Numbered from the stretch's first letter, positions 4,826 through 58,096 are shown. The stretch is DNA of 64,000 nt from Candidatus Zipacnadia bacterium (GCA_029820295.1 JALGVA010000005.1:1025-65024); one strand, 5' to 3'. A program made the numbers and translations. The notes: generated by a model from the letters alone, not told the origin.

Positions 4826-5827
4826 TCAAGGCGCGTCTGCCCGCTCCGGGTCCAGTGGCCAGCGCTCCACGAGGTCGATCGCCGCCGGGTCGCTGTTGCC
4901 CAGCCGGAACTCCGCGGTCGCGGGCTCCAGCCACGTCACCGGCGGGTCCAGCGCCACGCACCCCGGATCGGCCTGGCGCAGCGCCTCCAGCAGCACCTCT
5001 CGTCCCACCACGTCCAGCGCCACCGGATCGGCGGAGACGAGCAGTCCCCCGTACTGCCACATCTCCGGGCGCTCCCCGACCGGGTAGCTGGTGATCGGCC
5101 ACATGGCGTCCAGCACGTGCAACACGATCATGCGGCGCAAGGTCGAGTTGGCCGCGACCTCGGCGAGCCGCTCGGGCTCGCGCTCGATGCGCTTGCGCTC
5201 GGTGTAGGGCACCGACTCGAGGCAGTTGGCCAGCGCCCCGTGCATGCCGAAGTGCGCATCGACGCGCAGTCGCGACAGGCTGATGATAGTTGTACACTGA
5301 TCGAGCACCACGCGGCTGATCCCGCCGCGGTAGCCGAAGTCATCGCTGGCCATGACGTTGGCGCCGGGCACCCGGCCGCTTAAGTCGAAGCCGGCGCGGA
5401 ACAGCGCGGACTCCTGGCCCGCGTAGATGGTGATGTTGCGCAGCGGCACGCCCGTGGCCACGATGCGACGCACCAGCACGTCCAGCGCGGGGTCATGGGC
5501 CTCGATGCCCTCAACGTCAATCTGGACGCCCACGCGATCGCCGGGGGACACCACGGCGCGCCACGCTTCCACGGGGTCGTCCACACCCACGGCCGCCGCC
5601 ACCGCCTGGTCGAGCAGTTCGGTCACGACGCCGTAGTGCACGCGGCCCTGCGGATAAAGGATCGCCGGCGCCCGGATGCCCTCCGGCACCAGGATCTCTT
5701 CGGCCCGCGCAATGCCCACCACCGAGCGCTCAGGCACCGCCACCTGGCACCACGCCCGCGCCGCCGGCAGCAGCATCAGCAGCGCCGCCATCATTCCCGC
5801 ACATGCCGTGCCTGTTACTCGCCGCAC
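4826..5827 (-). CDS. Secreted hypothetical protein, DUF362-like (family assignment tentative)
   Basis: A 333-aa ORF with N-terminal signal peptide MRRVTGTACAGMMAALLMLLPAARA and non-repetitive globular composition. The family call is from memory of DUF362-type proteins and is not certain. Confidence 0.55.
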   Translation of the reverse strand: MRRVTGTACAGMMAALLMLLPAARAWCQVAVPERSVVGIARAEEILVPEGIRAPAILYPQGRVHYGVVTELLDQAVAAAVGVDDPVEAWRAVVSPGDRVGVQIDVEGIEAHDPALDVLVRRIVATGVPLRNITIYAGQESALFRAGFDLSGRVPGANVMASDDFGYRGGISRVVLDQCTTIISLSRLRVDAHFGMHGALANCLESVPYTERKRIEREPERLAEVAANSTLRRMIVLHVLDAMWPITSYPVGERPEMWQYGGLLVSADPVALDVVGREVLLEALRQADPGCVALDPPVTWLEPATAEFRLGNSDPAAIDLVERWPLDPERADAP

Positions 5828-5919
5828 CGGAGTCGCCCTCTCCTACCCATGCTGCGTCGCCCAACCCGCAGGAGAACTGACAGGTGCGCGAGAGAGATGT
5901 TTCGGCGCCGGGGAGCCGC

Positions 5920-6468
5920 TCAGCCCACGCGCGCGGCCGCCAGCAGCAGCGCCGCGACCGTCTTGCCGTCGCGCAGCTCGCCCGAGCGGCAGCGCGCCAC
6001 CGCCTCCGCCAGCGGCAGGCGCACGACCTCGATGTGCTCGTCGGCGTCGGCCTCCGCGCCGGCGGGCGCCAGCTCGGTCGCCAGGTAGAGGCGGATCAGC
6101 TCACTGGAGTAGCCGGGGGCGACGTAGAAGTCGCTGAGGTGCTCGATGCGCCCGGCGCGGCGGCCGATCTCCTCGGCCAGCTCCCGGCGCATGGTCTCCT
6201 CAGGCTCCTCGCCCGGCTCCAGGGTACCGGCCGGGACCTCGAGGAGCGCCTCGCCCGCGGGATGGCGCCACTGGCGCACCAGCAGCACGTCCTCCCCCTC
6301 GAGCGCCACCGCCGCCACCGCGCCGGGGTGCTCGACGATCTCGCGCGTCGCGGTGCCGCCGCCGGGCAGCGCCACCCGATCTACGCGCAGACTCACCAGC
6401 CGCCCCGCGAACACGGTCTCGCTCTCGATGGTCGTCTCCTGCAGGCGCTCGCGCGCGTCCTTGGTCAC
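5920..6468 (-). CDS. NUDIX hydrolase (ADP-ribose pyrophosphatase-like)
   Basis: Nudix box GTLEPGEEPEETMRRELAEEIG (GX5EX7REUXEEXGU). Confidence 0.85.
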   Translation of the reverse strand: MTKDARERLQETTIESETVFAGRLVSLRVDRVALPGGGTATREIVEHPGAVAAVALEGEDVLLVRQWRHPAGEALLEVPAGTLEPGEEPEETMRRELAEEIGRRAGRIEHLSDFYVAPGYSSELIRLYLATELAPAGAEADADEHIEVVRLPLAEAVARCRSGELRDGKTVAALLLAAARVG

Positions 6469-6597
6469 TCAGCACACCCCTGTCGTGGGTCGTCGCGGAC
6501 GCCACCAGCTTCGTCGCGACGCGCCATCGACCTGCAGGTGCGTCGCGGGCACGCGCCGAAACCGACGCGGACGCACGTCACGGCCGTGTCCCGAGGG

Positions 6598-7368
6598 ATG
6601 GCTACCATGAGCGTGGAGAGCCCCGACGGCCTGCGCTGGTTTGACTGCAACGCGCGCATCGGGCCGTGGTCGAACCCGCAGCTCGAGCAGTTCACCGACA
6701 TCGACGGCCTGCTGGCGGCCTGGGACCGCGTCGGCATCGAGGCCGGCCTGGTGCATCACACGTGGGCGTGGGAGTGGGCGCCTCCGCAGGGCAACGCGAA
6801 GCTGCTGGAGGAGATCGCGGGCCACGAGCGCCTGCGTCCGTGCTTCGTGGCGCTGCCACCGGGCACGCGCGAGATCGAGCCGCCACGCGAGTTCGCAGCG
6901 ATGGTGCGGGGCATGGGCGGCGCAGTGCGCATCTTCCCGAACATGCACAACTGGCGGGTGAGCGAGTGGTGCGCCGGGGCGCTCTTCGACGCCCTCGCCG
7001 AGCAGGGTGTGCCCGTCCTGGTCGATGTCGGCGAGATCGACTGGGAGGGGATCGCGGGCGTGCTGGAACGCCATGCGGGCATGCCGCTGATCGTGCTGGG
7101 CTTCTACTACCGCTGCGACCGCTTCGCCTACCCGCTGCTCGAGCGCTACCCGGACCTCTACCTCGAATCGAACAGCTACGGCGTCTTCGAGGGCATCGAG
7201 ATGGTGTGCGCGCGCTTCGGCGCCGAGCGGCTGATCTTCAGCACGGCGCTGCCGGAGCTGGAGGCCGGCGGGCCGATGGCGCTGGTCACCTACGCCGACA
7301 TACCCGACGAGGACAAGCAGAAGATCGCCGGCGGCACCATGCGCCGTCTGCTCGGGGAGGTGAGCTGA
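6598..7368 (+). CDS. Amidohydrolase-2 family (metal-dependent TIM-barrel hydrolase/decarboxylase), paralog A
   Basis: Internal ATG (MATMSVESP...) within the 494-aa track ORF gives 256 aa. Amidohydrolase_2-like features (WFDCNARIGPW, HH pair). The stop overlaps the start of the next gene. Confidence 0.7.
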   Translation: MATMSVESPDGLRWFDCNARIGPWSNPQLEQFTDIDGLLAAWDRVGIEAGLVHHTWAWEWAPPQGNAKLLEEIAGHERLRPCFVALPPGTREIEPPREFAAMVRGMGGAVRIFPNMHNWRVSEWCAGALFDALAEQGVPVLVDVGEIDWEGIAGVLERHAGMPLIVLGFYYRCDRFAYPLLERYPDLYLESNSYGVFEGIEMVCARFGAERLIFSTALPELEAGGPMALVTYADIPDEDKQKIAGGTMRRLLGEVS

Positions 7369-8172
7369 ATGCCGATGAGCCTGCAGGACTACGCCGTCAC
7401 CGGCACGCCCGTCGATGACGCCCACATCGTCGATGCCCACGCGCACATGGGCCCGTACTTCAATTTCATGGTCGGCGACGACGGCTCCGCGGCGGCGATG
7501 GTGCGCATGATGGACCGGCTGGGTATCGACGTGTCGATCGTCAGCCCGCACATCGCCCTCACCTGCGACTGGCTGGAGGGCAACCGCCACGTCGCGCAGG
7601 CGGCGGCGGAGTTCCCGGGGCGCATCGTGCCCTTCGTGGTGGTCAACCCGCACGCGCCGCGCGCGGCCATCGACGCCGAGATCGCGCACTGGCATGACAC
7701 CACAGGCATCGTGGCCTTCAAGCTGCACGCCTCGCTGCACAAGACCGACACGATGCACGAGGGGTACACGGCGGTGTACGAGTATGCCGACGCCCACGCG
7801 CTGCCCATCCTGTCACACTCGTGGAGCGGGTCGGGCGGGCCCATGAAGGTCATCGAGACGCTCAGCGGGCGCTACCCGAAGATCGAGTTCGTCAACGCGC
7901 ACTCCGCCAGCGGCTGGGCGGTCATCGACGCCTCGTGCGAGCTGGCGGAAAAGTTCGAGCGCGTGCACCTCGACCTGACCGGCTCGCTGCTGGTCTACGG
8001 CGGGCTCGAGCGCATGGTCGAGCGCGTGGGCGCCGAACGCATCCTGTGGGGCACCGACAGCCCGTTCATCGACCCGCGCCCGGCCCTGGGCCGGATGCTG
8101 TGCGCTCAGGTCCCCGACGAGGACAAGCGCAAGATGCTGGGCCTGAACGCCAAGCGGCTGTATCGGCTGTGA
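7369..8172 (+). CDS. Amidohydrolase-2 family, paralog B
   Basis: DAHAHMGP metal-binding motif near the N-terminus. The start forms TGAATG with the upstream stop. 267 aa. Confidence 0.8.
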   Translation: MPMSLQDYAVTGTPVDDAHIVDAHAHMGPYFNFMVGDDGSAAAMVRMMDRLGIDVSIVSPHIALTCDWLEGNRHVAQAAAEFPGRIVPFVVVNPHAPRAAIDAEIAHWHDTTGIVAFKLHASLHKTDTMHEGYTAVYEYADAHALPILSHSWSGSGGPMKVIETLSGRYPKIEFVNAHSASGWAVIDASCELAEKFERVHLDLTGSLLVYGGLERMVERVGAERILWGTDSPFIDPRPALGRMLCAQVPDEDKRKMLGLNAKRLYRL

Positions 8173-8217
8173 GCGCGCAGCCCGAGGGAACATCGCCGCG
8201 CCCGTCGAAGCAGTTGG

Positions 8218-8847
8218 GTGGTGATGGCGATGTCCGGTCGGGAGTGCGATGACGCCCCGCGCTTGCTGGCCCTCGCGTGCAGCCCGCGGCGCGGCGGCAA
8301 CACCGAGACGCTGCTCGACGCGGCGCTCGAGGGCGCGGCGCAGACCGGCGCGTGCATCGAGCGCTTCCACCTGCGCGAGCTGCGCATCAGCCCGTGCCTG
8401 CACTGCGGCGGCTGCGTGCGCACGCCCGGGCAGTGCGTCATCGATGATGACATGCAGCAGCTCTACGAACCCCTGCGCGCCGCCGACCGCATCATCCTCG
8501 CCTCGCCGGTCTTCTTCATGTCGGTCACCGCGCAGGCCAAGGCGATGATCGACCGTTGCCAGCCGCTGTGGGTGCTGCGCGCCATCGAGCAGCAGCCGGT
8601 CGCGGCCAGCCGGCTGGCGCGCGCCGCGCTCTACCTGGGCGCCGGCGGAGCCGGTTCTCCGGACTCCTTCGACGGCGCGCGGCTGACGCTGAACGCGTGG
8701 TACTGGACGCTGGAGATCGCTGAGCGCCGCGAGCTGACCTTCGGTGGCATGGACGACGAGGGCGCCATCCGCGGGCATCCCACCGCACTCGACGAGGCCC
8801 GGCGCGCCGGCTGCGACCTGGCTGCGTGGCGCTCGCACGAGGAGTGA
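8218..8847 (+). CDS. NADPH-dependent FMN reductase-like / iron-sulfur flavoprotein
   Basis: LALACSPRRGGNTE flavodoxin-like nucleotide loop, CxxC pairs (CLHCGGC), and a ILASPVFFMSV motif. The stop overlaps the next start (ATGA). Confidence 0.75.
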   Translation: MVMAMSGRECDDAPRLLALACSPRRGGNTETLLDAALEGAAQTGACIERFHLRELRISPCLHCGGCVRTPGQCVIDDDMQQLYEPLRAADRIILASPVFFMSVTAQAKAMIDRCQPLWVLRAIEQQPVAASRLARAALYLGAGGAGSPDSFDGARLTLNAWYWTLEIAERRELTFGGMDDEGAIRGHPTALDEARRAGCDLAAWRSHEE

Positions 8848-10610
8848 TGACCATCGACGCGCTCGAGGCCATCCGCAGCAGGCGCAGCATCCGCAAGTTC
8901 CGGAGCGAGCCGATCCCCCTCGACGTGCTGGAGGAGGTCGTCGAGTGCGCGCGCTGGGCGCCCTTCGGCACCGCACACGACGTGCGCGTGATCAAGGTCA
9001 TGGCGGGCGAGCCCAAGGCCGCGGTGGTGGCCTATCTCGACGAGCGCCTCGCGGAGGTCATCCCGGTGATGGCCGAGGGCCCGGCGCGGCAGACGCTGAC
9101 CTACGCGCGCTCGCTGGTGGGCATCATCCGCGATGCGCCTGTGCTGGTGGGGGTGTTCACCGCGGTGGGGCGCGAGGGCGCGGAGCTGTCCATCGCCTCG
9201 GCCGCCTGCGCGGTGCAGAACCTGATGGTCGCCGCGTGGGCGCGCGGGCTGGGGGCGTGCTACCTCACCGGCGCGATCTACCTCGCCGATGAGATCGCCC
9301 ACCTGTGCGACCTCGACGGCCATCAACTCGTCGGCCTGATCCCGCTGGGCTACCCGGCCCATGAGGGCGTCAGGCGGCGCGAGTTCCCGACGGTGCTGTG
9401 GCGCGGCTTCGGCGCGGCCGACCGGGGCGAGCCGCCCGCGCCGCCCGAGGCGCAGATCTCCGCGGTCGAGCAGGCACGCGCCGGCGCGGGCGAGCGCGTG
9501 CTGGTCGTGAGTGACGACCTGGAGGTGGACCAGGCGATCGTCTCGGTGCTGCGCCGGGCCGGCTACGAGGTGACCTGCGCCGAGCCCGTGGAGGCCATCG
9601 CGACGCACCGGCGCATCGCCCCACAGGTGACCATCGTGGACGCGATCCTGCGCGGAGTGAACGGCTACGATCTCGCCCGCGCCATCGAAGGCGCAACGCA
9701 CGGCCCGTCCCCGGTGCTGATCGTCACCGCCGCCTACGACGCCGCCGACGAGGAGCAGGCGCTGATGGCCGGCGCCGCCGACGTGCTCGGCAAGCCGGTG
9801 CGCGACCACGAGCTGCTCGCGCGCGTGCGCTCCCTGGCCGACAGCGTCGCGCTCTACCAGCGCATCGAGGAGCACGCCGAGCAGCTCGAGCAGGCCAACG
9901 AGGAGCTGCGCCGCCTCCAGCAGATGCGCGACGACCTGACGAACATGATCGTGCACGACATGCGCACGCCGCTGACCAACGTGCTGTCGGGGTTGCAGAC
10001 CATCGAGGCGACCGACTACGACCCGGAGATCACGCGCGAGTTCCTGCCCGAGGCCATCAACGCCGGCGAGGACCTCGCCGACATGATCAACAACCTGCTC
10101 GACATCTCCAAGATGGAGGCCGGGCAGCTCACACTCGACCGCAAGCCGGTCCTCGCGACGGAGGTGGTCGCCGAAGCGGTCGAGCGGGTCGACCACCTGA
10201 TCGGGGAGAAGGGCCTGCGCCTGGAGACGCGCGTCCCCGATGGCACGATGCTCGACGCCGACCGCGACTTGCTCAAACGCGTGCTGCTCAATCTGCTCAG
10301 CAACGCGATCAAGTTCACGCCCGACGGCGGGGAGATCACGGTGGACGCGCGGCGCGACGGCAATGCCGTGCGCATGTGCGTGCGCGACACCGGCGAGGGC
10401 ATCCCGGAGGATCAGCTCGGGCGGCTCTTCATGAAGTTCGGCCAGGTGCAGCGCGGGCCTGCACAGAAGCGCCAGGGGACCGGGCTGGGCCTCGCCTTCG
10501 TGAAGCTGGCGGTCGAGGCGCATGGAGGCGAGGTCTCGGTGGACAGCACGGTCGGCGAGGGCAGCACCTTCTGCTTCACCATCCCGGCAGGCGCACCTGA
10601 GGACCACTGA
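8847..10610 (+). CDS. Hybrid sensor: N-terminal nitroreductase domain, then response-regulator receiver, then HisKA, then HATPase_c histidine kinase
   Basis: Nitroreductase signature RRSIRKF...PIP at aa 1-170. Receiver with DD, phospho-acceptor D in TIVDAIL, T in LIVTA and K in LGKP. H-box MIVHDMRTPLT. N-box LLNLLSNAIKFT. G-boxes VRDTGEGI and GTGLGLAFV. Start is the ATG at 8847 overlapping the upstream TGA. Confidence 0.85.
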   Translation: MTIDALEAIRSRRSIRKFRSEPIPLDVLEEVVECARWAPFGTAHDVRVIKVMAGEPKAAVVAYLDERLAEVIPVMAEGPARQTLTYARSLVGIIRDAPVLVGVFTAVGREGAELSIASAACAVQNLMVAAWARGLGACYLTGAIYLADEIAHLCDLDGHQLVGLIPLGYPAHEGVRRREFPTVLWRGFGAADRGEPPAPPEAQISAVEQARAGAGERVLVVSDDLEVDQAIVSVLRRAGYEVTCAEPVEAIATHRRIAPQVTIVDAILRGVNGYDLARAIEGATHGPSPVLIVTAAYDAADEEQALMAGAADVLGKPVRDHELLARVRSLADSVALYQRIEEHAEQLEQANEELRRLQQMRDDLTNMIVHDMRTPLTNVLSGLQTIEATDYDPEITREFLPEAINAGEDLADMINNLLDISKMEAGQLTLDRKPVLATEVVAEAVERVDHLIGEKGLRLETRVPDGTMLDADRDLLKRVLLNLLSNAIKFTPDGGEITVDARRDGNAVRMCVRDTGEGIPEDQLGRLFMKFGQVQRGPAQKRQGTGLGLAFVKLAVEAHGGEVSVDSTVGEGSTFCFTIPAGAPEDH

Positions 10611-10633
10611 CCACGCCGCACAGGAAGATGGAC

Positions 10634-10816
10634 ATGCCGATCATCACCATCATCGACGCGCCGCCCATCGAGGTCGAGAAGAAGCGGGCGCTGGCCTGCG
10701 AGATCACGGACGCGATGGAGAAAGCCTACGGCTTGCCGCGCACCAGCTTCATCATCATGCACGACACCAAGCGCGAGAACGTGAGTGTCGGCGGCGAGCT
10801 GCTGTGTGACCGGTAG
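10634..10816 (+). CDS. 4-oxalocrotonate tautomerase family protein (Pro1 after Met removal)
   Basis: MPIITIIDAPPIEVEKKRALACEITDAMEKAYG is a classic 4-OT beta-alpha-beta fold sequence with N-terminal Pro. Start taken at the second ATG of the 62-aa ORF. Confidence 0.7.
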   Translation: MPIITIIDAPPIEVEKKRALACEITDAMEKAYGLPRTSFIIMHDTKRENVSVGGELLCDR

Positions 10817-10857
10817 GCGGGACCCGCGGAGGCCATCGGACGGCTCCCGGTCGGCCG

Positions 10858-10883
10858 GAAGGCGCGCGTTTGTGCGCGCCGCC
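10858..10883. terminator. GC hairpin GGCGCGC-GTTTGT-GCGCGCC in a convergent intergenic region (tautomerase against UroD-like). Candidate bidirectional terminator.
   Basis: Perfect 7-bp inverted repeat with a 6-nt loop, read directly from the sequence. Confidence 0.4.
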
Positions 10884-10932
10884 GTTGCCGTGCCCATGCT
10901 CGATGCCCCATCCCCCATGCCCCGCCGTGTCC

Positions 10933-12003
10933 TCACGGCAGCCGCAGCGGGTACCGCCCGTACTCCAGGTACACCTCGCGCACCAGCTCCATTGTGTCCA
11001 CGGAGATGTCCGGCGCGATCGAGTGCGTCGCCAGCGCCAGGCCGCCACCCACGCCGGCCGACAGCACCTCGAGCACGTGCGCGCGCACCTCGTTGGGGTT
11101 GCCGCGCGGCAGGATCAACGCGTTGTCCATCCCGCCCAGCAACGCCAGCCTGTTACCGTAGCGCTCGCGCAGCCTGGTCGGGTGCAGGCCGGTGTGATAC
11201 TCGACCGGGTTGATGCCGTCGAAGCCGAGGTCGATGAACAGGTCCAGCAGCGGGCCGATGTTGCCGTCGCTGTGCAGGATCACCTTGGCGGCGCCCGCGG
11301 ACTTGAAGCTCTCGACCATCAGTTGCCACGCGGGCGCGAGGATGCGCTCGGCGGTCGCGGGCGAGAACATGGGGCCCTTGGTCGCGGCCATGTCGTCGTA
11401 GATCCACACGCCGGTGTCGTAGAGGTCCCAGCGGCGCAGCTCTTCGAGGCCGATGGCGGTGAGGTGGCGGGCGGTGCGCATGACCATCTCGCTCGCCATC
11501 TGCGGGTCGGCCGCGAGGTCCATCAGCCACTGCTGCTCACCGCGCATGAAGCCGGTGCGGATGAAGGGCCCGCCGGTCTTGGCGAAGACTGCGTAGCGCT
11601 CCTTGAGCGCGTCAATGTGCGCGTCGATGCGGGCGTAGCGACTGTCCAGGTCAGGCGGTTCGAACTCGCCGTAGCGCAGCGCGCCGGCCTCGTCGTAGCC
11701 CACATCCACCTGGTCGTAGAAGTAGCCTGCGGAGCGCACGCGCTTGATCTGCCCCCAGCCATCGCGCTGGATGGTGTACTCGCCCTCCGTGCCCAGCTCG
11801 CCGGCAAGGCTTGGCCAGGCGGTCTCGTCACCCACCACGATGCGGATGTCCACGAGGTAGTGGTCGTCGATGGTGGCCGGGTCATTGCCGGTCTGCGCCG
11901 CCCAGGCCTGCGTGAACTCGCCCCAGAAGCCCATGGGCGCGATGGGGACGCGGTCGGGCTCGCGGAAGTCGAGGGCGGTCATGACGCGTTCCCTGGAGGT
12001 CAT
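10933..12003 (-). CDS. Uroporphyrinogen decarboxylase (URO-D)-like family protein (MtaA/CmuA-type methyltransferase or UroD homolog)
   Basis: Start at the internal ATG (MTSRERVMTALDFREPDRVPIAP...), giving 356 aa. The URO-D-family N-terminal pattern (RV..AL.....DRVP) and overall length fit. The upstream 34 codons of the track ORF were rejected. Confidence 0.7.
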   Translation of the reverse strand: MTSRERVMTALDFREPDRVPIAPMGFWGEFTQAWAAQTGNDPATIDDHYLVDIRIVVGDETAWPSLAGELGTEGEYTIQRDGWGQIKRVRSAGYFYDQVDVGYDEAGALRYGEFEPPDLDSRYARIDAHIDALKERYAVFAKTGGPFIRTGFMRGEQQWLMDLAADPQMASEMVMRTARHLTAIGLEELRRWDLYDTGVWIYDDMAATKGPMFSPATAERILAPAWQLMVESFKSAGAAKVILHSDGNIGPLLDLFIDLGFDGINPVEYHTGLHPTRLRERYGNRLALLGGMDNALILPRGNPNEVRAHVLEVLSAGVGGGLALATHSIAPDISVDTMELVREVYLEYGRYPLRLP

Positions 12004-12224
12004 CGGCGCAGCTCCGTGTCGGTCCGGGATTCCGATCGGGCGAGTGTTCGCCGCGAGCGTCCGCTGCCCTGCCCCGCGCGCCGGGCAGAGGACTCGGGGC
12101 GGCACGCGCCGAAAACCTGACCGGCCGGGGCCGCGGGCCCTGGCCTCTCTATCCGCGACGGGAACCTTTCACCCGCGCGAAGGCTCAAACACACTGCCGC
12201 GGCGTGCCGGCGCGGAGTGCTGCC

Positions 12225-13298
12225 ATGCGCATCGTCGACCGCTACATCCTGGGCGAGGCCTTCAGGCCCTTCGTGGTCGCGCTGCTGGCCTTCGTGGTGC
12301 TGATCTCCGGCCACATGCTCTTCACCGTGGTCGAGGTCATCGTCGAGCACGGGGTGCCACTGCCGTCGGTGTTGCGCTTCGTGGCGCTGCAGGTGCCGGG
12401 GGCGGCGGTCATGGCGCTGCCGGTGTCCGTGCTGATGGGCTGCTCGCTGGCCGCCAACCGGCTCGCGTCGGACCACGAAATCGTGGGCATGCGTGCGGGG
12501 GGCATCTCGCCGGCGCGGCTGCTCGCGCCCATGTGGCTGCTGGGACTGCTGGCGACCATCGCCACCTTCACGGTGAGCGAGGGCGCGGTGCCCTGGTCAC
12601 GACGCCAGGCCGAACTGCTGGTGCGCGACATGGTGCTGCGGCGCCAGTCGCTGGCCTTCGAGCCGGGGCGCTTCACCGACACCGGCCAGGGCATCACCAT
12701 CTACGTGGGCGAGCGCAGCCCGGTCCCAGGGGAGTTGCGCGACGTGATGGTCTTCCAGTCGCAGGCGGGCGGCTACCCGCTGGCGTTCACGGCGCCGGGC
12801 GCGGTCTTCCGCGGCGACCTGCTCTACCCGGTGGGCGCGCGCTTCTACTACTTCGACGGCGCCGGCCTGACCACGCTGCGCAGCGCCGGCGTCGAGGTCG
12901 ATCTCCGCCAGGTCGGCTCGGCGGCCGGCGGCCTGGCGGGCTCCACCGGGATGGCCGAGATGTCACTGCGCGAACTGACGGCCGAGTATGAGCGGGCGGA
13001 GGAGAGGAGCGCGGGCAGCGGACGCTCGTACGCCCTCGAAGCGCATACGCGGCTGGCCATGGCGGTGTCGTGCCTGGTGTTCGCGGCGCTGGCCGGGCCG
13101 GTCACGCTGCGTTTCGCCCGCGGGCAGAGCCTGGTGGGCATCGCGGCGGCGTTGATCATCACCTTCGGCTACTTCCTGGTCATGATCTGGACCAGGGCGC
13201 TCGGCGAGGGCGGCGCGCTGCCCGTGCCGGTGGCCGCCTGGGTGCAGAACGCAGTCCTCATCGCAGCCGCCGCCCTCGGCGTCTACCGGCTTCGCTGA
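12225..13298 (+). CDS. LptF/LptG family LPS export permease (YjgP/YjgQ)
   Basis: MRIVDRYILGEAFRPF N-terminus typical of LptF/LptG. It has six predicted TM segments and a periplasmic beta-jellyroll region. Confidence 0.8.
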   Translation: MRIVDRYILGEAFRPFVVALLAFVVLISGHMLFTVVEVIVEHGVPLPSVLRFVALQVPGAAVMALPVSVLMGCSLAANRLASDHEIVGMRAGGISPARLLAPMWLLGLLATIATFTVSEGAVPWSRRQAELLVRDMVLRRQSLAFEPGRFTDTGQGITIYVGERSPVPGELRDVMVFQSQAGGYPLAFTAPGAVFRGDLLYPVGARFYYFDGAGLTTLRSAGVEVDLRQVGSAAGGLAGSTGMAEMSLRELTAEYERAEERSAGSGRSYALEAHTRLAMAVSCLVFAALAGPVTLRFARGQSLVGIAAALIITFGYFLVMIWTRALGEGGALPVPVAAWVQNAVLIAAAALGVYRLR

Positions 13299-13319: not shown

Positions 13320-15740
13320 ATGAGGACCGTCCTGCGCACAACCTGGCGGCTCACCCTTGCGGCGTTGCTGCTCGCGCCGACGGCCGCCGGTGCCGCGCCC
13401 GCGCGTGGGGCCGTTGACCAGGTCGTCATCGACGAGACCGAGGCCGACGCCCCCACCACCCAGCGGGCGACCCCTCCTGAAGCCACGCCGGCCGACGACA
13501 CGTCCTCGGAAGAGCAGCCGCGGGCCGGTGGCGCCACGCCCGCACCCGCAGGCACCGATGGGGAACCGCCGGCAGAGTCGGGAGAGGGAGGCGGGCCCGG
13601 CGCGGAGGCGCCGGAGGGGGAGGAGGCCCCCACCGAGCCTGCCGACTGGCGCCCTGAGCCCTCCGAGGAGAATATCCTCATCGACGCCGACGAGGTCTAC
13701 TACCGGGCCGGGGCGACCGTCGCGCGGGGCAACGTCACCGTCCGCTACCGCGAGATCGTCATCACCGCCGACGAGGCCGAGATCGACGAGGATGGCGTCT
13801 GGGGCCAGTTCCGCGGCAACGTCACCATCACCCGCGAGGAGGTCGAGACCACCGCGGAACTGATCCGCGTCAACTTCGACACCGAGGAGTGGGAGGTGCT
13901 GGGCGGGCGCACCGTGCTCGAGCCCGCCTTCTTCGAGAGCGGCGTAGTCGAGCCCATCTACGTGCGCGCGCGCAGCGTCGCCGGCACCGAGGGCGATGAG
14001 GTGATCTACGCCGAGGACGCGACCGTCACGAGCTGCAACCTGGAGCATCCCCACTACGGCCTGCACTCTGACCACATTCGGCTGATCGGCGAGGACCGTG
14101 TCGTGCTCGAACGCCCGCGGCTGGAGGTGCTGGGCTTCACGCTCTTCCGTTACCCGTGGGACCTGGTGCTGTCGCAGCGGAGCCAGAACAACCGCTTCTT
14201 CCCGGAACTGGGCCAGAACACCGTCGAGGGCTTCTACGCCAAGCTGGCATACCTCTACCTCACCGGCAGCACCTACAACAGCTACGTGCGCCTGCACCTG
14301 ACCGAGAAGCGCGGCATCGGGCTGGGCGCGGACCACTACTTCCGCACCGGGCCGCACAGCGGGGAGCTGTCGCTGTTCTGGGAGCCCGACGAGGGCGCGC
14401 TGAGCGGGCGCGCGCGCGAGACCTGGGAGATCTCCGACGAGTTGAGCTCCAACCTGAGCCTCAACCTCCAGCAGAACACCGGCTTCTACGGCGCCACCGA
14501 GTCGCTGACGGGCAACCTGGCGCTGCGCTTCCGCGGCGAGAACGCCACCGCCACGCTGGGCATCGACCACTCGCAGACCGACAGCACAGTATCCTCAAGC
14601 GTGCGCACCAGCACCAGCTTCACCCACCGCCAGCAGCTCGGCAGCGACGCCAGCGCCGACGTGCGCGCGGTGGTACGGCGCACGCAGTACGGCGATCGGC
14701 CAACGAGCGCATGGCTGGAGACGGACCTGCAGTTCCAGCAGCGCACGAGCTGGTATGACTGGGCCATGGCAGCCGAGCAGCAGTGGGAGCTGGAGGGCGA
14801 TCAGGGGCGCAACTACGGCCTCGACCGCCTGCCCGAGATCGTCTTCAATACCGACAGCCGACGGTTGGGCGACTGGAGCGTCTTCGACGTGGTCCCCATG
14901 CGCGCCACGCTCAAGGCCGGGCACTTCGTGCAGTATCCGGACGAGGAAGAGATCTCGATGGCGGCCATCGAGACCTACCTGGGCGGCGGGCGCACGCCCG
15001 TGGGCGGGGACTTCGTGATGACCACCACCGGGACGTTCGACCAGGCATTCTACGATGAGGGCTCGGCGCGCTACCGCGTGGGCACTTCGCTCGACCTGAC
15101 CGGCGAGCATGGCGGAGGGTGGAACACGCGCCTGGCGCACCGCTACTCGACGGTCGAGGGCTACTCGCCGCTGCGTCGCGACTACGGCGGCAAGTACAAC
15201 GACGTGACGTTGTCCTTCGTGCAGCAGACGCGCGACCGCTCCTACCTGGACATCGGCAGCGGTTACGACTTCGTGGACGACCAGTGGCGCGAGATCCGCC
15301 TGCGCGGCTGGCTGGCTGCGTCGAGCACCGACCGCATCGAGATGGTCGCCGGCTACGCCCTCGAGCAGGACCTGTGGCGGCCGGTGCAGGTGCGCTGGGT
15401 GCACGCGACTCCCTGGGACGTCTACCTCGCGCTGTCATCGCGCTACGACATCGACGGCGACCAGCTCACCGACGCCGACCTGGAGTTCGACTGGCGCCTC
15501 GACCCGCGCTGGCGCCTGGAGGGCATCGCGACCTACAGCGGCTACCGTGGCGAGCTGGACCAGCTCAACCTGCGCATCACGCGTGACCTGCACTGCTGGC
15601 TGGCGGCGTTGACCTACGACATGGCGTCGGACGAGATCCGCCTGAACCTGGGGATCAAGGCCTTCCCGTTCGAGGACCAGGACTGGACGGTGGGAGAGCG
15701 CGGCGCGCGCCTGGGCAGCTACGGGCAGTACTACTATTAG
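13320..15740 (+). CDS. lptD: LPS-assembly protein LptD (OstA family) with a long acidic Pro/Glu-rich N-terminal linker
   Basis: Signal peptide. OstA N-terminal domain motif (ILIDADEVYYRAGATVARGNVTVRYREIVITADEAEID). The large C-terminal region is aromatic-rich beta-barrel-like and ends ...GSYGQYYY. 806 aa. Confidence 0.8.
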   Translation: MRTVLRTTWRLTLAALLLAPTAAGAAPARGAVDQVVIDETEADAPTTQRATPPEATPADDTSSEEQPRAGGATPAPAGTDGEPPAESGEGGGPGAEAPEGEEAPTEPADWRPEPSEENILIDADEVYYRAGATVARGNVTVRYREIVITADEAEIDEDGVWGQFRGNVTITREEVETTAELIRVNFDTEEWEVLGGRTVLEPAFFESGVVEPIYVRARSVAGTEGDEVIYAEDATVTSCNLEHPHYGLHSDHIRLIGEDRVVLERPRLEVLGFTLFRYPWDLVLSQRSQNNRFFPELGQNTVEGFYAKLAYLYLTGSTYNSYVRLHLTEKRGIGLGADHYFRTGPHSGELSLFWEPDEGALSGRARETWEISDELSSNLSLNLQQNTGFYGATESLTGNLALRFRGENATATLGIDHSQTDSTVSSSVRTSTSFTHRQQLGSDASADVRAVVRRTQYGDRPTSAWLETDLQFQQRTSWYDWAMAAEQQWELEGDQGRNYGLDRLPEIVFNTDSRRLGDWSVFDVVPMRATLKAGHFVQYPDEEEISMAAIETYLGGGRTPVGGDFVMTTTGTFDQAFYDEGSARYRVGTSLDLTGEHGGGWNTRLAHRYSTVEGYSPLRRDYGGKYNDVTLSFVQQTRDRSYLDIGSGYDFVDDQWREIRLRGWLAASSTDRIEMVAGYALEQDLWRPVQVRWVHATPWDVYLALSSRYDIDGDQLTDADLEFDWRLDPRWRLEGIATYSGYRGELDQLNLRITRDLHCWLAALTYDMASDEIRLNLGIKAFPFEDQDWTVGERGARLGSYGQYYY

Positions 15741-44848: not shown

Positions 44849-47800
44849 TCAGCGTGCGACCTGGGCGGAGCGCAGCGCCTGCACCCGCTGGCCGTTGTCG
44901 GCGACGGCCTCGATGCGGATCAGGTAGGTGCCCGCGGGCACTACGGTGCCCTCGGCGCTGCGCAGGTCCCACAGTTGCTCGCCCTGCCCGGCCGGCACCG
45001 CGCGCGACTGCACCAGCCTGCGCACCGACCGGCCTGCGATGTTGAGCACCTCGATGCTCAGGTTGCACGTCGAACTCACGTCGTAGGTCACCATCAGACC
45101 GGCGCCGCCGACGCTCGCCGCGGCACTGCGGATCGCCAGGCTCTCCGCGCCGCGCGGCGCGACCTCGAGCGCGAAGTGACGCAGCGCACCATCCGTGCCC
45201 GTGGTGAACACGTAGGCCGGCAGCGTGCGCGCATACATGCGCTCGCCGGTGTCGAGGTCGGTCAGGTAGACCGCCAGGTCGGCAGGCACCGCGCTCAGGT
45301 CGGGCAGCAGCACCTGCACCTCGGCGTCGGCCAGGTCGGTCTCGACCGAGAAGGTCCAGACCATCGCGCCCGCGCCGGCCGGGCGGATGTCATGGGCGAG
45401 GCGCGCACCGGAGTCATCGGTGAAGTAGACGTCCACCGTGCCGGGCACGCGCGGCGGGTTCTCCACGCGGTAGCCCTGGCCCTCGGCACCGCTGCCCACG
45501 CCCGCGACGGTGCTGATGTCGGCGCGGCCCGCGGCGTGGGCGACGATCGGCACCAGCCAACCGCCCTCGGCGACGTCGGCCGCCGCCGCGGGCCCGACCG
45601 CCAGTGACGCGGCGCTCACGCCGGTGGGCGCGGCCACGTTGAGCGTGCCCGCGGCGCCGGTGGCCTTGAACCACGCGCCCTCCCAGGCCTCGATGTAGTT
45701 GCGCGCCGAGTTGATGGCCGGACTGCGGGAGATCATCCGATAGCTGCCGATGGTGTTGTCCCAGATGAACGCGTAGGGGCGGATCTCGGTGCTGCCCGCC
45801 GCCGTGATGTTGGCCAGAGGCAGCGCGCTCTCATACATGTTCCCGAGCATGTTCCAGCCCGTGGAGACGCCCACGCTGAAGGTGCCGGCGGCGCCGACCG
45901 GGTCGCCGGGGATGTTCACGGTAGTCTGGGTCGGGAAGTCCACGAAGAACGCCGCGCCCGGCCGCACCACCAGCTCGAGGTGGTCCGGGTCGTCGGCCGC
46001 CCGCACGTAGCCCGGCGGCGTCGCCGAAGCATTCCAGCGGGCCACCTGCAGCGTCTGGAAGATATCGACCGCGCGGTCGCGCCCGGTGGGCGGATCCGCG
46101 GGCACGGCCACCATCTGCAGGCCGCGCGCGAACTGGTGCACGAACTCACTGTAGGCGGTGAAGTTGTTGCCGGTGGATGACGGCGGCACCGTCACCTGCA
46201 GCGTCGCGGGGTCGAACGCCAGCCCCGCCTTGGTTGCGGTCAGCACCACCGTCGAGGCGGGAACCCCGCCGATGGTGAATTCACCGGCCTCGCTGGTCAC
46301 CGCAGTGCGCGTCCCGTCGCTCACCGTCACACCGGCGATGCGGTTGCCCAGGCTATCGCTGACGCGACCGGAGATGGTGTAGGTCATGGTCGTTGCGGTG
46401 AAGTCCACGCCGGTGGCATCCGTCCCGGCCACGTTGACGGTGCGCGAAGCGGGCGTGTAGGTGAAGTCCTGGTAGCCGTCGCTGTTGGCGTCACGGCTGC
46501 ACGCGACCGTGTAGATGCCGTTGGGCACGTCCGCGATGGTGAAGTCCCCGTTGGCGTCGGTCAGTGCGCTGCGCGTGCCGTCGCTGACCTGCACACCGGC
46601 CACCCCGGCGCCGTCCTGGGTGACACGCCCGGTGATGTCGTGCGTGCGCTCCATGCCCACGAAGTCGATATCACGCGCCGACGGGCCCACGGTCACCTGC
46701 TGCGCCACCGGGGTGAAGTCGTACTCCGGGAACGAGGGCGTGACCGTGTAGGTGCCGGCCAGCAGCCCCTGCACGCGGTAGGCGCCGTTGCCGTCGGTGC
46801 CCACCGTCTGCCCGTCCACGGTCACATCCACGCCCGGCAGCGGCTCGCCGGCGACGTCGGTCACGAAGCCCCTGATCTCGTAAGTGGGCTCGTCCTCGGT
46901 CGTGAAGCTCCAGTCGGCCGTGCCGGCGTTGCCCGCCTCGTCCGCGGCCTCGACGTGCACATCGTAGTCGGTGGCGTAGTCCAGGTCGGCGGGCGGCTGG
47001 TAGGTCACGATGACCTCGGGCTCACCCACCTGCGCGGGGGCCGGACCGGTGGTCAGGTCGCCGGTCACGTCCGTGCCGTTGACGCTCATCGCGATGCTGC
47101 CCTCGTCAACGCCCGAGCCGCCGTCGCGCACCCGCACGGAGATGGCGCTGCTCACGAGTACATCGCTGGAGCCATCCGGCGGGCTGAACTGGTCGAACAT
47201 CGGCGCGACCACATCGGTCGCCGAACTCTCCTGCCACGTCTCGGTGGGCATGGCGTTGCCCGCGATGTCAGACACGTCCACGGAGAAGTCCACCGTGGCG
47301 TTGAAGCCCCAGCCGCCTGGCGCCGCATAGCTCACCACCACGTCCAGCGGGTCGGTGGCGTCGATGGTCGCGCCGCCGGTCACATCGGTGCCGTCCACCT
47401 GGAAGACGAGCGTGGTCACGTCCACGCCGGAGATGTCGTCCTCGATGTGGAAGGTCACCGTGCCCGCGTTGGCGTCGAAGGCCTTGTTGGTCACCTGCGG
47501 CGCCTGCGTGTCGGACGTGGTGTCGAAGTAGTAGACCTCGTGCAGCTCGTTGCTGCTGTTGTCGTCCACGCGCACGGCGACCATCACGTGCTCGTTATAG
47601 CTGAACGGCCCCGCCGGATCGAAGTCCACATGGATGCCGCCGGCGATCGGCGTGACCACCGCGCTCGGGGTGACCGTGATCCCGTTGACGGCCATGCTCA
47701 GCGTCGACGCATCCACGCCGGTGCCGTCGTCGAGGATGTCGAAGGAGATGTTGCTGTCACGCGTCACCTCGGTGGCGTCCGGCGCCGGATCCTGGTTCGC

Positions 47801-50800
47801 CAGGTAGGGCGCCGTCGTGTCCGCGGCGGTCTCCTCCGCGGTGTTGACCGCGCTGTTCTCGTTGGGCACCTCGTCGTAGGCGGTTACGGCGTAGAACCAG
47901 GTCTCACCGGGGTTGACCGCGTTGTCGGTCCAGGTCTGGGTGCCGGCCGCCACGTCGGCGACCTGGGTCGCCGCGCCGGTGTCGGCGAAGTTGGCAGCCG
48001 AGCGCCAGACATGGTAGCCGGCCACGTCCACCTGGGCCGCTTCGTTGTAGCCGGTCCAGTCGAGGCCGATGGTCATGCCGTCCGGCCCGGTGGTGGCGTC
48101 GAGGTCCAGGGCTGCCAGCGCGGCGGGCGCCACCGTGTCCTGATAGCCCGCGTTGTCGGTGGCCGAGTCGCCGCCCTGCGGGTCATCGTAGGTGAGGGTG
48201 AGCACCCGTCCCAGGGGCCCGGCCGGGAGGTGGAAGGTCCCGTTGTTGTCCGCGCCCGAGCGGCCCAGCGAGTTGATCTGGCCGCGGAACACGCCGGTGC
48301 TGTTGCCGGTCTCGGTGAGAGTCAGCGTCTCCGTCTCACCGCCCGAGTTGTCGGTGATGGTCACACCCACCGTGTCCGCCACGCCGGGGTTCTCGTTCTC
48401 GTCCGCGTCGGTGACCTCGGCGTAGAGGGTGTCGCCCTCCTCATAGACGGCGACATCCGCCCAGGCCGCGTCGGTGAAGCGCGCTGCGCTGGCGCTGCCG
48501 ATGATCGGGCCGGGCAGCGTGTCGGGCGCCGCGGGCAGGCGCACCGGCGAGTTGGCGACGTAGAAGAAATGCTCCCACGCGCCGTAGCCCAGTGTCGCAC
48601 CGTTGACCGTGGCCAGATAGGTCACGCCGACGTCGTAGGCGTCGGTGTCGGCCGGGTCGCGGGCCATGACGACCTCGAGCGTGCCCGCGCCGATGTTGAG
48701 CACGATGTCATCGGGCGGCGGCAGGTTGGTGGTGTCGATGTACTCGACTGAGAAGGCGAAGTCGGTCGCCAGACCGCCGAACAGGGGCGTGAGGGTCGGA
48801 CTCTGAAGCGTGAAATCGGCCATGAACATCATGTTCGACGCGGGATCGAGGCTCAGCTCGGCGTTGTGCCAGTCCGACTCGGCGCCCTGGTCGTCGAAGG
48901 CCTTGATCCGGTAGTAGTAGGGGCGGTCGGTCAGCAGCGCCTGGCCGGGAAGGAGCTGGTACTCGGTGACCCCGGCGCCCAGCATCATGTCCAGGTGCGG
49001 TGTGCTGAAGTCCGGATTGTCGTCGATCACAAGCTGATAGGTGAGCGTGTGCGCCGGGTCGGCCGCGTCATCGTCGCTGGCGTCCGGCCAGTCGATCAGC
49101 GGCGTCACCGTGCGGATGTTGCCGTCGGGCACGAAGTCCGCGCGCTGCAGGGCCACATCCCAGTACGGCGGGTTGTTGAGATCGACCCGGAAGAGCTGGG
49201 TCGAGCGGTAGGGCACTCCGCCGGCGTAGGTCCACAGCGCGGAGGCCTTGTTGTCGTCATCGAAGGTGCGCAGGCGCCAGTACCACACGCCCTCCGACAG
49301 CGGCGCGGTATCGGGGATGGTGAACTCGGTCGCGCCCGCGCTGGTGGTGTACTCGTAGGCCACCGGCGCGAAGGTCTTGCTCTGCGAGAGCTGCAGCTTG
49401 TAGTAGAGCAGGTCGGACGTGTCGGTGGCGTTGATATCGCTGGCGGCGTCCCACATGAAGGTGGGCGTCGAGTCGTGCACCACCAGGACGTCCTGCCCGC
49501 TCAACGTGTCCGGGAAGTCGGGCGACTCGGGCGAGTAGCCTCCCGGCGAAATCGCCGGCGGGTCGTTGACCAGCGGCCCGTCCATGTAGGTACCGTCGGC
49601 CACGGGGTAGCGCGCCTGCGGTGAGGGGCTCTCGGGCACCTCGTCAACCACGAAGTAGTGACGGTGATGCCCGTCGCCGATCTCGTTGTCGGCCGGGTCG
49701 GTGCGGATGCCCAGGGAGCTGACCGTATAGCGCTCGCCGTTGGTGTAGTCGCCATCCTGCAGCTCCGCGGCGGCTGTGGTATCGACCTCCATGGCCAGCG
49801 CCTGCAGCGGCGTGCCGGCGGTGGTGTTCTCGATCAGCAGCCACACGCGGCCGCTGGGAGGCGGGTTGTCGTCAAGGTCGGTGTAGGTGATCCCGAAGAC
49901 GTAGGTGTCGCTCTGCAGGCCCTCGACGGGCGCCATCGCAGGCTCGGTCAGTGTCGGGGCGTGCGCGCCCGGGCCCGGGATGTAGGCGGTGCCGATCCCC
50001 AGGTCATCCACCAGCACCTCCGCGGCGCCGGCGGTGTCCGCGCTGTCGTAGGTCTCGTCGGGGCTACCGTCGAGGTCGTTGTCGATGAAGATGGTGAAGG
50101 TCTCGATGGAGCCCTTGTACTTGAACTCAGCATCGGTGTACTGCAGGCGCCACTGATCGTCCAGCGTGGGCGGGAGGTGGGTCAGGGCGTCGGTGAGGTC
50201 GAGATAGGCGTGGATGTTCGCCTTGTCGTCGGCGCCCTGCTGGTTGAAGGCGACCCAGCTCCACGAGCCGTCCTGGCGGCCGATGGTGAGCTCAACGTCA
50301 TCCCGCGATTCGCACGGGAGGTCGCACTCGGCCCACGCGGAGGGCTGGTAGCCGATCTTGTCGGTCATGAAGAAGGCGGGCCCCGCGCCCTCGAACTCCT
50401 CGGTCTCGCCATCGGCGTTGATGGGATCGATCAGGCCCATGACGAAGCCGTAGGACAGATAGGCCTTGCCGTCGCCCGCCCAGCCGGAGCCCCAGGAGTT
50501 AATGAACAGGAAGCCGCCGAAGATGTCCTGGTCGTCCTCGTCGGGATCGAGTTCGCCGCTGGCGTCGTCGTCGGCGTCGATGTCGCCGTCGCCGTCGGAG
50601 TCATCGGCGTCGCCCCGGTCCTTGTCGTCGTCGTAGCCGACGATGCAGATGGCGTGGTAGCCCGTGATCTCAGCATCGTCAGCAGGGCGCTCGTAGTAGT
50701 CATCGTCCGCGATCTTGGCGGCGAAGTCGTCGTAGATCGGGATGCCGATGACGAACGGTTCGCCCAGGTCGAGCTGGTGCTTGAGCGCGGCGAGATCGAT

Positions 50801-57955: not shown

Positions 57956-58096
57956 CGTACTAGGCCACCTCTCGCTGCTGATTTGCCCCGCAACCGCCGA
58001 CACACAGTCATGCGTCCGGCGTTCACGCGCGGCGCGCGATCGACGAGACGAAGGGACCCTCGTGCCGGCCCCTTACGGGCCAGCCTGTCTGCGGCC

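Follow-up and report, generated by a model that had tools for sequence, protein, structure and literature searches.

Histidine kinases (HKs) take their identity from the signal that they sense, and they have only a small set of cytoplasmic sensors for redox state or xenobiotics, consisting of PAS domains with FAD, LOV domains, haem-containing PAS or GAF domains, and quinone-reactive cysteines. Does a nitroreductase (NTR) fold belong on this list? The question is raised by a gene within a 64,000-nucleotide stretch of DNA from Candidatus Zipacnadia bacterium (GCA_029820295.1, JALGVA010000005.1:1025-65024), hereafter called the window. An earlier interpretation made from this DNA alone (the sequence-only reading) had proposed that a single protein joins a nitroreductase to a receiver (REC) and to a kinase transmitter composed of HisKA and HATPase_c domains, and that a nitroreductase input is not a standard sensor class.

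We find that this fusion is real and conserved within Armatimonadota, and that it is not an assembly artefact. Its new element is the NTR-fold module ahead of the receiver, whereas the remaining part, a receiver followed by the dimerization and histidine phosphotransfer domain (DHp) and the catalytic and ATP-binding domain (CA), is already known. A nitroreductase-fold input to a two-component kinase is described in no paper or curated NCBIfam model that we found, which supports the claim that it is not a standard sensor class, provisionally because domain-architecture queries were not included. The fusion may represent a novel type of sensor in the cytoplasm, for redox state or for small molecules. 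If so, the NTR-fold input would add a flavoenzyme-derived class of sensors, and the protein would be a natural case of an additional input stacked on a receiver-controlled kinase. It is also among the few leads on signaling in the largely uncultured Armatimonadota, and as a soluble protein of 587 amino acids it is amenable to in vitro study of its flavin content and its dependence on redox state and receiver.

Domain Order of the Predicted Protein

The gene lies in an open reading frame (ORF) on the plus strand that is intact from position 8826 (GTG) or 8847 (ATG) through 10610. Translation from the ATG gives a protein of 587 amino acids, in agreement with the N termini of homologues; this ATG overlaps the upstream stop codon as TGATG, and GAGGAG lies before it. 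The G+C content of the window is ~71%, and spurious long ORFs are abundant on both strands, including an antisense ORF of 658 amino acids. Among the overlapping ORFs at the kinase locus, only the plus-strand ORF passes a filter for coding-type codons (third-position G+C, 0.95; second-position G+C, 0.44), and its codon statistics are uniformly of the coding type along the whole length. A codon check placed R12, R13, S14, and R16 at 8880-8894, D265 at 9639-9641, H370 at 9954-9956, and the stop codon at 10608-10610. The parts of the protein and the neighboring features are collected in Table 1.

Table 1. Coordinates, in the window, of the kinase gene, its parts, and the features around it
Feature	Residues	Position	Strand	Evidence
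Whole gene, soluble NTR-REC-DHp-CA protein		8847..10610	+	ORF, Pfam, shared architecture, codon check
Nitroreductase-fold module (Pfam core 9-169 plus ordered C-terminal extension ending in WRGF)	~5-200	8859..9446	+	PF00881, AlphaFold, Foldseek
Variable NTR-receiver linker	~201-215	9447..9491	+	Identity dip, indels, low pLDDT
Receiver (REC)	216-320	9492..9806	+	PF00072; conserved D223, D265, T294, K316
Signaling helix alpha-S	~321-360	9807..9926	+	AlphaFold helix, Asp-to-His spacing
DHp/HisKA, with H370	361-428	9927..10130	+	PF00512, invariant H-box residues
CA/HATPase_c	429-587	10131..10607	+	PF02518, invariant boxes, Foldseek
Two tandem Amidohydro_2 genes (6598-7368 and 7369-8172)		6598..8172	+	PF04909, 31 and 88 bits; TGA directly followed by ATG
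FMN_red-family flavoprotein, CX2CX2CX6C motif		8218..8847	+	PF03358, 80 bits; stop overlaps kinase start (TGATG)
4-Oxalocrotonate-tautomerase-family protein with Pro1	60 in all	10634..10816	+	PF01361; NCBIfam DmpI, 60 bits, below the 70-bit cut-off
GC-rich hairpin GGCGCGC-GTTTGT-GCGCGCC between convergent tautomerase and URO-D-like genes		10861..10880		Read from sequence

Pfam domain calls, which the sequence-only reading had suggested as a check, support all four domains, the nitroreductase included. The Nitroreductase match (PF00881, residues 9-169) scores 94.3 bits against a cut-off of 23.5 (E 1e-26) and covers profile positions 1-167 of 167. The matches to Response_reg (PF00072, residues 218-328, 62 bits), HisKA (PF00512, residues 361-426, 49 bits), and HATPase_c (PF02518, residues 472-581, 102 bits) are likewise above their curated cut-offs, and all four matches lie well outside what chance would produce. 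With an intact ORF, four domains over their cut-offs, and conservation of the arrangement in a family (see below), the proposal of a single NTR-REC-HisKA-HATPase protein is borne out.

No transmembrane segment was found in the protein (19-residue Kyte-Doolittle mean, maximum 1.7, on a predicted nitroreductase beta-strand), and it is therefore predicted to be cytoplasmic. At E ≤ 0.01 it has no Pfam match to PAS, LOV, or GAF domains. There is no receiver downstream of HATPase_c, since the chain ends six residues past the CA domain. Its NCBIfam matches are to generic kinase models only, all below cut-off, which indicates that no curated family covers this protein.

Conservation and Distribution of the Fusion

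Searching 5.8 billion protein clusters, we recovered 44 clusters (P0001-P0044, at the 90% identity level) that combine nitroreductase, receiver, and HisKA domains, and HATPase_c is also present in all of them except the truncated P0038. Identities across the 44 clusters range from 42 to 100%, with coverage mostly of 98-99%, and the sequences originate from NCBI, JGI, ENA, and Logan assemblies representing independent metagenomes. All taxon-named entries are Armatimonadota metagenome-assembled genomes (MAGs). Mean pairwise identity in the family is 0.55 for the nitroreductase, 0.50 for the receiver, and 0.54 for CA; DHp, at 0.71, is the most conserved part.

One possibility is that a chimeric assembly or a frameshift has joined separate nitroreductase and receiver-kinase genes. 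Two entries could be taken in this sense, namely P0045 (locus L001) and P0122 (locus L090), each annotated as separate, overlapping nitroreductase and receiver-kinase genes. However, once a single frameshift is bridged, both apparent splits yield the family sequence again. At L001, the nitroreductase frame continues past the frameshift into nonsense, and receiver strand beta1 (LMVTDRPEVD...) is found in the adjacent frame. At L090, the frameshift lies on a contig of 1.2x coverage with many fragmented genes. We therefore rejected both as natural split genes, and each copy inspected reads as one fused gene. Furthermore, 44 clusters from four assembly sources encode the fusion without a break, and the coding-type codon statistics of the window ORF extend throughout. 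The sequence-only reading had named a frameshift or stop that splits the gene as one outcome that would refute it; this test came out in favor of the fusion, and we regard an artefactual origin as effectively refuted.

The family appears to be small and lineage-restricted because a profile search with the NTR and REC portions found their junction in only seven of 1.84 billion representatives at 50% identity, one of these being a truncated fragment. In the remainder of the best 150 matches, the receiver part of the profile aligned with three to seven stretches of each protein; these are presumably multi-receiver proteins, and the search is blind to remote NTR-REC fusions under about 200 bits. 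In the full-length search, the PF00881 carriers among the matches listed are all family members except P0046, a partial nitroreductase-receiver fragment. A scan of species-representative genomes that relied on generic kinase motifs gave one true family member among the matches listed (L010, Armatimonadota), the rest being generic receiver-kinase or kinase genes.

Two orthologues have an unusual gene start. At L004 (7932-7975; P0030) and L009 (~7850-7900; P0031), the frame encoding RRSIR has no ATG, GTG, or TTG after the upstream in-frame stop codon, and the N terminus of the kinase has been cut off by gene callers. At L004, the FMN_red gene and the kinase gene share a frame, with a single TGA between them. 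The missing start suggests a non-canonical start codon, reinitiation, or readthrough.

A Receiver-Controlled Kinase Core

The sequence-only reading regarded the position of the receiver, between input and kinase, as unusual. This assessment does not hold, because Rec-DHp-CA is an established class and the nearest paralogues of the protein share this order. Such proteins are termed Rec-controlled HKs (Rec-HKs), are reportedly frequent, and have LvrB as their prototype (PMC13269768). In this class the lengths of the signaling helix alpha-S favor multiples of seven, and the LvrB kinase is activated by receiver phosphorylation; activation proceeds from receiver phosphorylation through the alpha-S coiled coil to release of CA, a mechanism resolved only in 2026 (PMC13269768). 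In ExsG, receiver phosphorylation inhibits the attached kinase (PMC3899027).

The window protein carries the marks of a Rec-HK, with a receiver directly before DHp-CA, a continuous helix, and heptad-quantized spacing. AlphaFold predicts one unbroken helix for residues 320-388 that runs from receiver alpha5 through alpha-S into DHp alpha1 (all AlphaFold predictions used here are of cofactor-free monomers). The distance from the receiver Asp to the DHp His is 105 residues in 29 of 32 family members, 98 in two, and 112 in one, and thus departs from 105 by exactly seven in either direction. The spacing from D56 to H161 in LvrB is likewise 105. This is strong sequence-level evidence for a register-critical signaling helix between receiver and DHp, where the indels are whole heptads only.

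The residues needed for phosphotransfer are also in place, as the sequence-only reading had claimed in describing a canonical receiver with its Asp and a complete transmitter. In the receiver, these are D223 (equivalent to D13 of CheY), the phospho-acceptor D265, T294, and K316. Of these, D265 is conserved in 31 of the 32 members and K316 in 30, and T294 and D223 are nearly invariant. H370, D371, R373, and P375 of DHp are invariant, and the N box (N482/N486), G1 (D514-x-G516-x-G518), F box (F528/F531), and G2 (G544-T-G546-L-G548) of CA are invariant or nearly so. Foldseek aligns the CA domain with HK853 and DivL (TM score 0.84), and the top structure for the full-length model is LvrB (8vc9).

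The nearest paralogues, from Armatimonadota and relatives, are either plain Rec-DHp-CA proteins (P0058, P0069) or proteins in which an H-box module precedes Rec-DHp-CA (P0051, P0057). They share 41% identity with the window protein over Rec-alphaS-DHp-CA, with a near-identical H-box region (MRDDLTNMIVHDxRTPLT). The module N-terminal to Rec-DHp-CA in P0051 and P0057 is DHp-like (HDLRTPLNQIIGY), an arrangement that resembles a single-chain His-Asp-His relay. Another protein, P0048, has two HATPase_c and two HisKA stretches with a receiver ahead of the C-terminal kinase core, which suggests the order HK-REC-HK.

The Nitroreductase-Fold Module

Three lines of evidence confirm the proposed nitroreductase fold. 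First, the PF00881 match covers the entire profile. Second, AlphaFold models the module with a mean predicted local distance difference test score (pLDDT) of 91, and order extends to about residue 200, with residues 181-200 above 90. Third, Foldseek matches the module to the FMN-bound structure 3gfa (CD3205; TM score 0.8, E 3e-12) and also to the C-terminal domain of FbiB with FMN or F420. In all, 194 chains in the Protein Data Bank (PDB) were matched at E ≤ 0.001, and 50 of the 50 listed belong to the nitroreductase superfamily. The closest PDB sequence is a Geobacter protein (4g8s, E 2e-14).

The sequence-only reading went further and called this module a complete FMN-nitroreductase, which is correct in part. 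The fold is kept, as are the residues RRSxR and a C-terminal Arg (R12, R13, S14, R16, and R177) that, by homology, we take to bind the FMN phosphate. R12 and R13 are invariant, and S14, R16, and R177 have a frequency of at least 90%, both within the family and among stand-alone relatives. The word "complete" needs qualifying, in that the canonical motif APSxxNxQPW is replaced by AP(F/Y)GTxxDxR. With the phosphate residues kept and this motif replaced, flavin binding is likely, in a remodeled environment. The module is, to judge from its conservation, under constraint, with a mean pairwise identity on par with those of the receiver and CA and with RRSxR and R177 retained.

A Possible Two-Input Switch

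We propose that the protein is a soluble, dimeric, LvrB-type Rec-controlled kinase in which the receiver acts as the proximal switch and an N-terminal dimer of NTR-fold modules provides a second input, a model to which we give about an even chance of being correct. Members of the nitroreductase superfamily are obligate homodimers with FMN at the interface that carry out NAD(P)H-dependent reduction. In the model, the nitroreductase dimer, tethered to two receivers by linkers of ~15 residues, would signal the redox state of its flavin, or that an aromatic, quinone, or nitro compound has been bound or turned over, by altering how the receivers are held or docked. The receiver pair would be rearranged by phosphorylation of D265 from an unlinked upstream donor, by a change that the nitroreductase module imposes, or by both. 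Receiver alpha5 would be continuous with the heptad-registered alpha-S and then with DHp helix 1 bearing H370, which would make the receiver the proximal switch, such that its rearrangement would make or undo the alpha-S coiled coil and free CA to phosphorylate H370. The phosphoryl group would then pass to a partner encoded elsewhere. The operon partners (two Amidohydro_2 proteins, often an FMN_red protein, and often a 4-oxalocrotonate tautomerase) suggest that the signal may be tied to aromatic or redox metabolism.

Conserved residues, helix continuity, heptad quantization, and published precedent underlie the part of this scheme that leads from receiver to kinase, and the LvrB model is directly applicable because the Asp-to-His spacing is identical. 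We infer how the nitroreductase acts on the receiver, that FMN is bound, and what the signal is; dimerization, the role as a sensor, and the direction of regulation are likewise predictions of the model. Between nitroreductase and receiver there is no signaling helix but a short linker of poor conservation, which argues that the receiver, rather than the nitroreductase, is the proximal regulator of the kinase.

A number of observations weigh against this model, and they concern the nitroreductase module, its linker, the receiver, and the neighboring genes. In the nitroreductase module, the remodeled motif AP(F/Y)GTxxDxR is present in 21 of 21 aligned family members, with G41, T42, and R47 invariant and D45 nearly so, whereas the canonical A-P-S-x-x-N-x-Q-P/C-W, located after helix B, is retained in most of 26 stand-alone relatives. 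In NfsB structures, the canonical motif touches the partner subunit's flavin, and the module may as a result differ in how it binds its cofactor or in its chemistry. The linker of ~15 residues carries indels in the family and has a mean pLDDT of 62 for residues 201-210. The mean pairwise identity of residues 191-215, which include it, is 0.26, compared with 0.50-0.71 for the domains. A linker that is short, variable, and modeled with low confidence makes rigid mechanical coupling unlikely, and thus a docking interface between nitroreductase and receiver is only assumed.

These features of module and linker also bear on a different explanation, in which the nitroreductase is a working enzyme. 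In that case the protein would act as a response regulator whose output is enzymatic and which also passes the signal on as a kinase, with an unlinked kinase phosphorylating the receiver to control both nitroreductase activity and autophosphorylation of H370, or the enzyme would merely be tethered for co-production. Rec-HKs require no input besides the receiver (PMC13269768), and a flexible linker suits tethering. In addition, the FMN-phosphate residues are kept, the module is conserved as a stand-alone enzyme would be, and the operon is enzymatic in content (two Amidohydro_2 proteins, FMN_red, and tautomerase). However, a response regulator normally has its output domain on the C-terminal side of the receiver, and here the nitroreductase is N-terminal to it. 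Moreover, no stand-alone gene of the AP(F/Y)GTxxDxR subtype is found among the short homologues returned (165-282 amino acids), which show at most 35% identity, the nearest having the canonical motif. By sequence comparison, this subtype seems to have arisen by divergence within the fusion. The module-only homologue search missed even the family's own members, and gives no basis to exclude other multidomain architectures. We consider the enzyme explanation improbable; if the module is merely a tethered enzyme, the finding shrinks to an unusual but ordinary domain fusion.

A further argument against an enzymatic role, and for that of an input module, comes from P0230 (844 amino acids, encoded on a 69 kb ENA contig), which has the order NTR-REC-HisKA-HATPase-REC. 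Its kinase core is different (H-box SHEIRTPLN), its C-terminal receiver is canonical, its Asp-to-His spacing is 112, and about 95 additional C-terminal residues have no Pfam match. The NTR-REC pair has thus moved as a unit onto a second type of transmitter, as input cassettes do. This reuse also speaks for an internal receiver that serves as an input and does not accept its own kinase's phosphoryl group; in P0230, the group on the DHp His may instead pass to the fused C-terminal receiver. On this comparison, the NTR-REC unit seems to behave as a portable input cassette.

The observations on the receiver are as follows. At the position equivalent to CheY D12, the main clade carries Ser or Thr, and the deeper clades, which have the canonical DD pair, carry Asp; the beta5 aromatic switch position is Val; the Pfam score of 62 bits compares with about 100 for the paralogues; and P0030 (L004/L005, five contigs), otherwise an intact member, has Asn at the acceptor position (VSIVNA). 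All of these would be consistent with an unphosphorylated pseudo-receiver that serves as an adaptor and passes the state of the nitroreductase dimer into the alpha-S coiled coil, making the protein a redox or ligand sensor kinase with one input. The lack of a candidate upstream kinase at any of the loci compared, or in the window, points the same way. Nonetheless, the residue set of a phosphorylatable receiver (acidic pocket, Asp, Thr, and Lys) is present apart from these exceptions at D12, the switch position, and P0030, and the high conservation of D265, K316, T294, and D223 is what selection for phosphorylation chemistry would be expected to leave. Retention of the DD pair in deeper clades argues in the same direction. 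In addition, the H-box module before the receiver in paralogues fits a phosphorylatable receiver in this lineage. On balance, we judge a pseudo-receiver to be unlikely.

Lastly, counts of neighboring genes at 13 loci, the window included, offer the two-input model little help. The FMN_red gene is beside the kinase in six loci and the tautomerase gene in seven, and thus in about half; as a result, the FMN_red protein was downgraded as an obligate partner of the kinase. No response regulator, Hpt protein, or upstream kinase was found adjacent in any of the 13 loci. The enzymatic neighbors give a hint of aromatic or redox metabolism. This evidence is weak because the MAGs are related, and synteny may reflect common descent rather than function.

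A more specific form of the two-input model can be imagined, which we put forward tentatively and think somewhat doubtful. The nitroreductase fold would be a new flavin-based cytoplasmic sensor that forms a two-input cassette with the receiver. For the kinase to fire, a phosphorelay signal would have to arrive at D265 while the nitroreductase is in a particular flavin redox or ligand state, which amounts to a logic gate built on an LvrB-type coiled-coil switch. In operons that have it, the iron-sulfur flavoprotein might control whether the nitroreductase flavin is oxidized or reduced.

Comparison with Known Systems

Among characterized proteins, LvrB of pathogenic Leptospira (8vc9) resembles the window protein in having a receiver joined directly to a HisKA-type DHp via alpha5 and alpha-S, the same spacing of 105, a complete CA, and a soluble character. 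Both also carry a Tyr three residues past the conserved Thr or Ser (T294/Y297 here, S84/Y87 in LvrB). In contrast to the window protein, in which a 200-residue NTR-fold module precedes the receiver, LvrB starts at its receiver. The beta5 switch is Y103 in LvrB and Val in the window protein, and the two are ~19-20% identical in the Foldseek alignment. For the window protein, an LvrA-like upstream kinase and an LvrC-like partner would, in our model, be encoded elsewhere. ExsG, a Rec-HWE protein, likewise uses an N-terminal receiver to control a kinase core and combines regulator and kinase to relay from an upstream kinase to a downstream regulator (PMC3899027). Unlike the window protein, ExsG has an HWE-type core and no additional N-terminal domain, is hexameric, and is inhibited when its receiver is phosphorylated.

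Flavin- or quinone-responsive signaling proteins include the PAS-FAD sensors NifL, MmoS, and Aer, the LOV-FMN kinases, ArcB, and RegB. Their cytoplasmic input is a flavin or the redox or quinone state, as we suppose for the window protein. However, these systems rely on PAS or LOV folds or on membrane-proximal cysteines, with a helical linker to DHp. The window protein instead has the alpha+beta fold of nitroreductases, no detected PAS domain, and a receiver interposed before DHp.

Stand-alone nitroreductases (CD3205, 3gfa; the FbiB C-terminal domain, 4xoo and 4xoq; and the Geobacter proteins 4g8s and 4dn2) share with the window module the fold (TM scores 0.7-0.8), RRSxR, the C-terminal Arg, and the GLG-x-C and PLGYP motifs. 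They differ in that they are at most ~30% identical to it and are not fused to signaling domains, and in that the canonical APSxxNxQPW is remodeled in the window module. In the nearest paralogues (P0058 and P0069; P0051 and P0057), the position before the receiver is empty or occupied by the DHp-like H-box module, not by a nitroreductase fold. The protein also differs from classical hybrid histidine kinases, in which a receiver C-terminal to CA accepts the phosphoryl group from the protein's own His; only the variant P0230 has a C-terminal receiver.

The Operon and Its Surroundings

The kinase gene is part of a co-directional cluster with tiny or overlapping gaps, in the order amidohydrolase pair, FMN_red, kinase, tautomerase. 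The amidohydrolase pair lies upstream of the kinase in 8 of the 13 loci, down to 51% kinase identity, and neither gene belongs to a specific NCBIfam family. In the FMN_red protein, the motif cysteines C60, C63, C66, and C73 as well as C21 and C114 are invariant in four orthologues, and the best PDB sequence match is 7d38 ("Cd1"). The CX2CX2CX6C motif resembles, in our assessment, the compact 4Fe-4S motif of archaeal iron-sulfur flavoproteins. The tautomerase most likely starts at its second ATG (MPIITI), which lies at 10634 with AGGAAG 6 nt ahead of it, and the Met-Pro pair is invariant in four orthologues.

The hairpin downstream of the tautomerase gene is a possible end of the operon; lacking a T-run, it escaped the terminator scan. 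A scan of 5800-12300 for sigma-70 promoters and intrinsic terminators found none and is uninformative at 71% G+C. The sequence-only reading had also noted the lack of a cognate regulator in the window. Consistent with this, a search of all six-frame ORFs of the 64 kb with family hidden Markov models (HMMs; --max, the receiver HMM built from one family) found no other receiver, kinase, or nitroreductase.

Convergent to the operon is a gene for a URO-D-fold protein (10933-12105, minus strand) that is nearer to MtaA/CmuA methyltransferase models than to HemE, yet far below their cut-offs. Besides the window, 4 of the 12 other loci (L004/L005, L008, L091, and L092) have a gene of this type in the same convergent arrangement. 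On the other side, DUF362 and NudE-like NUDIX genes (4826-6468, minus strand) are divergent from the amidohydrolase-kinase cluster. This placement is conserved in six loci for the NUDIX gene and in five for DUF362, which has no match at L090.

The wider window is core chromosome, with genes for PheST, L20, IF3, UvrA, and LptF/G. Directly after LptF/G is an ORF of 806 amino acids (13320-15740, plus strand) with coding-type codons and no Pfam match. Its N terminus is signal-peptide-like and is accompanied by a region rich in Pro, Glu, and Ala, and it may encode an LptD-like or other outer-membrane protein. Farther on, two giant ORFs of 2203 and 2128 amino acids lie in tandem on the minus strand (44849-51460 and 51617-58003). 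Their N-terminal ~1400 residues have no Pfam match save a weak match to an Ig domain at 657-741 in the first ORF, and nearly all of their Pfam matches are to CarboxypepD_reg, Big_5, or FlgD_ig-type Ig-like repeats past about residue 1400.

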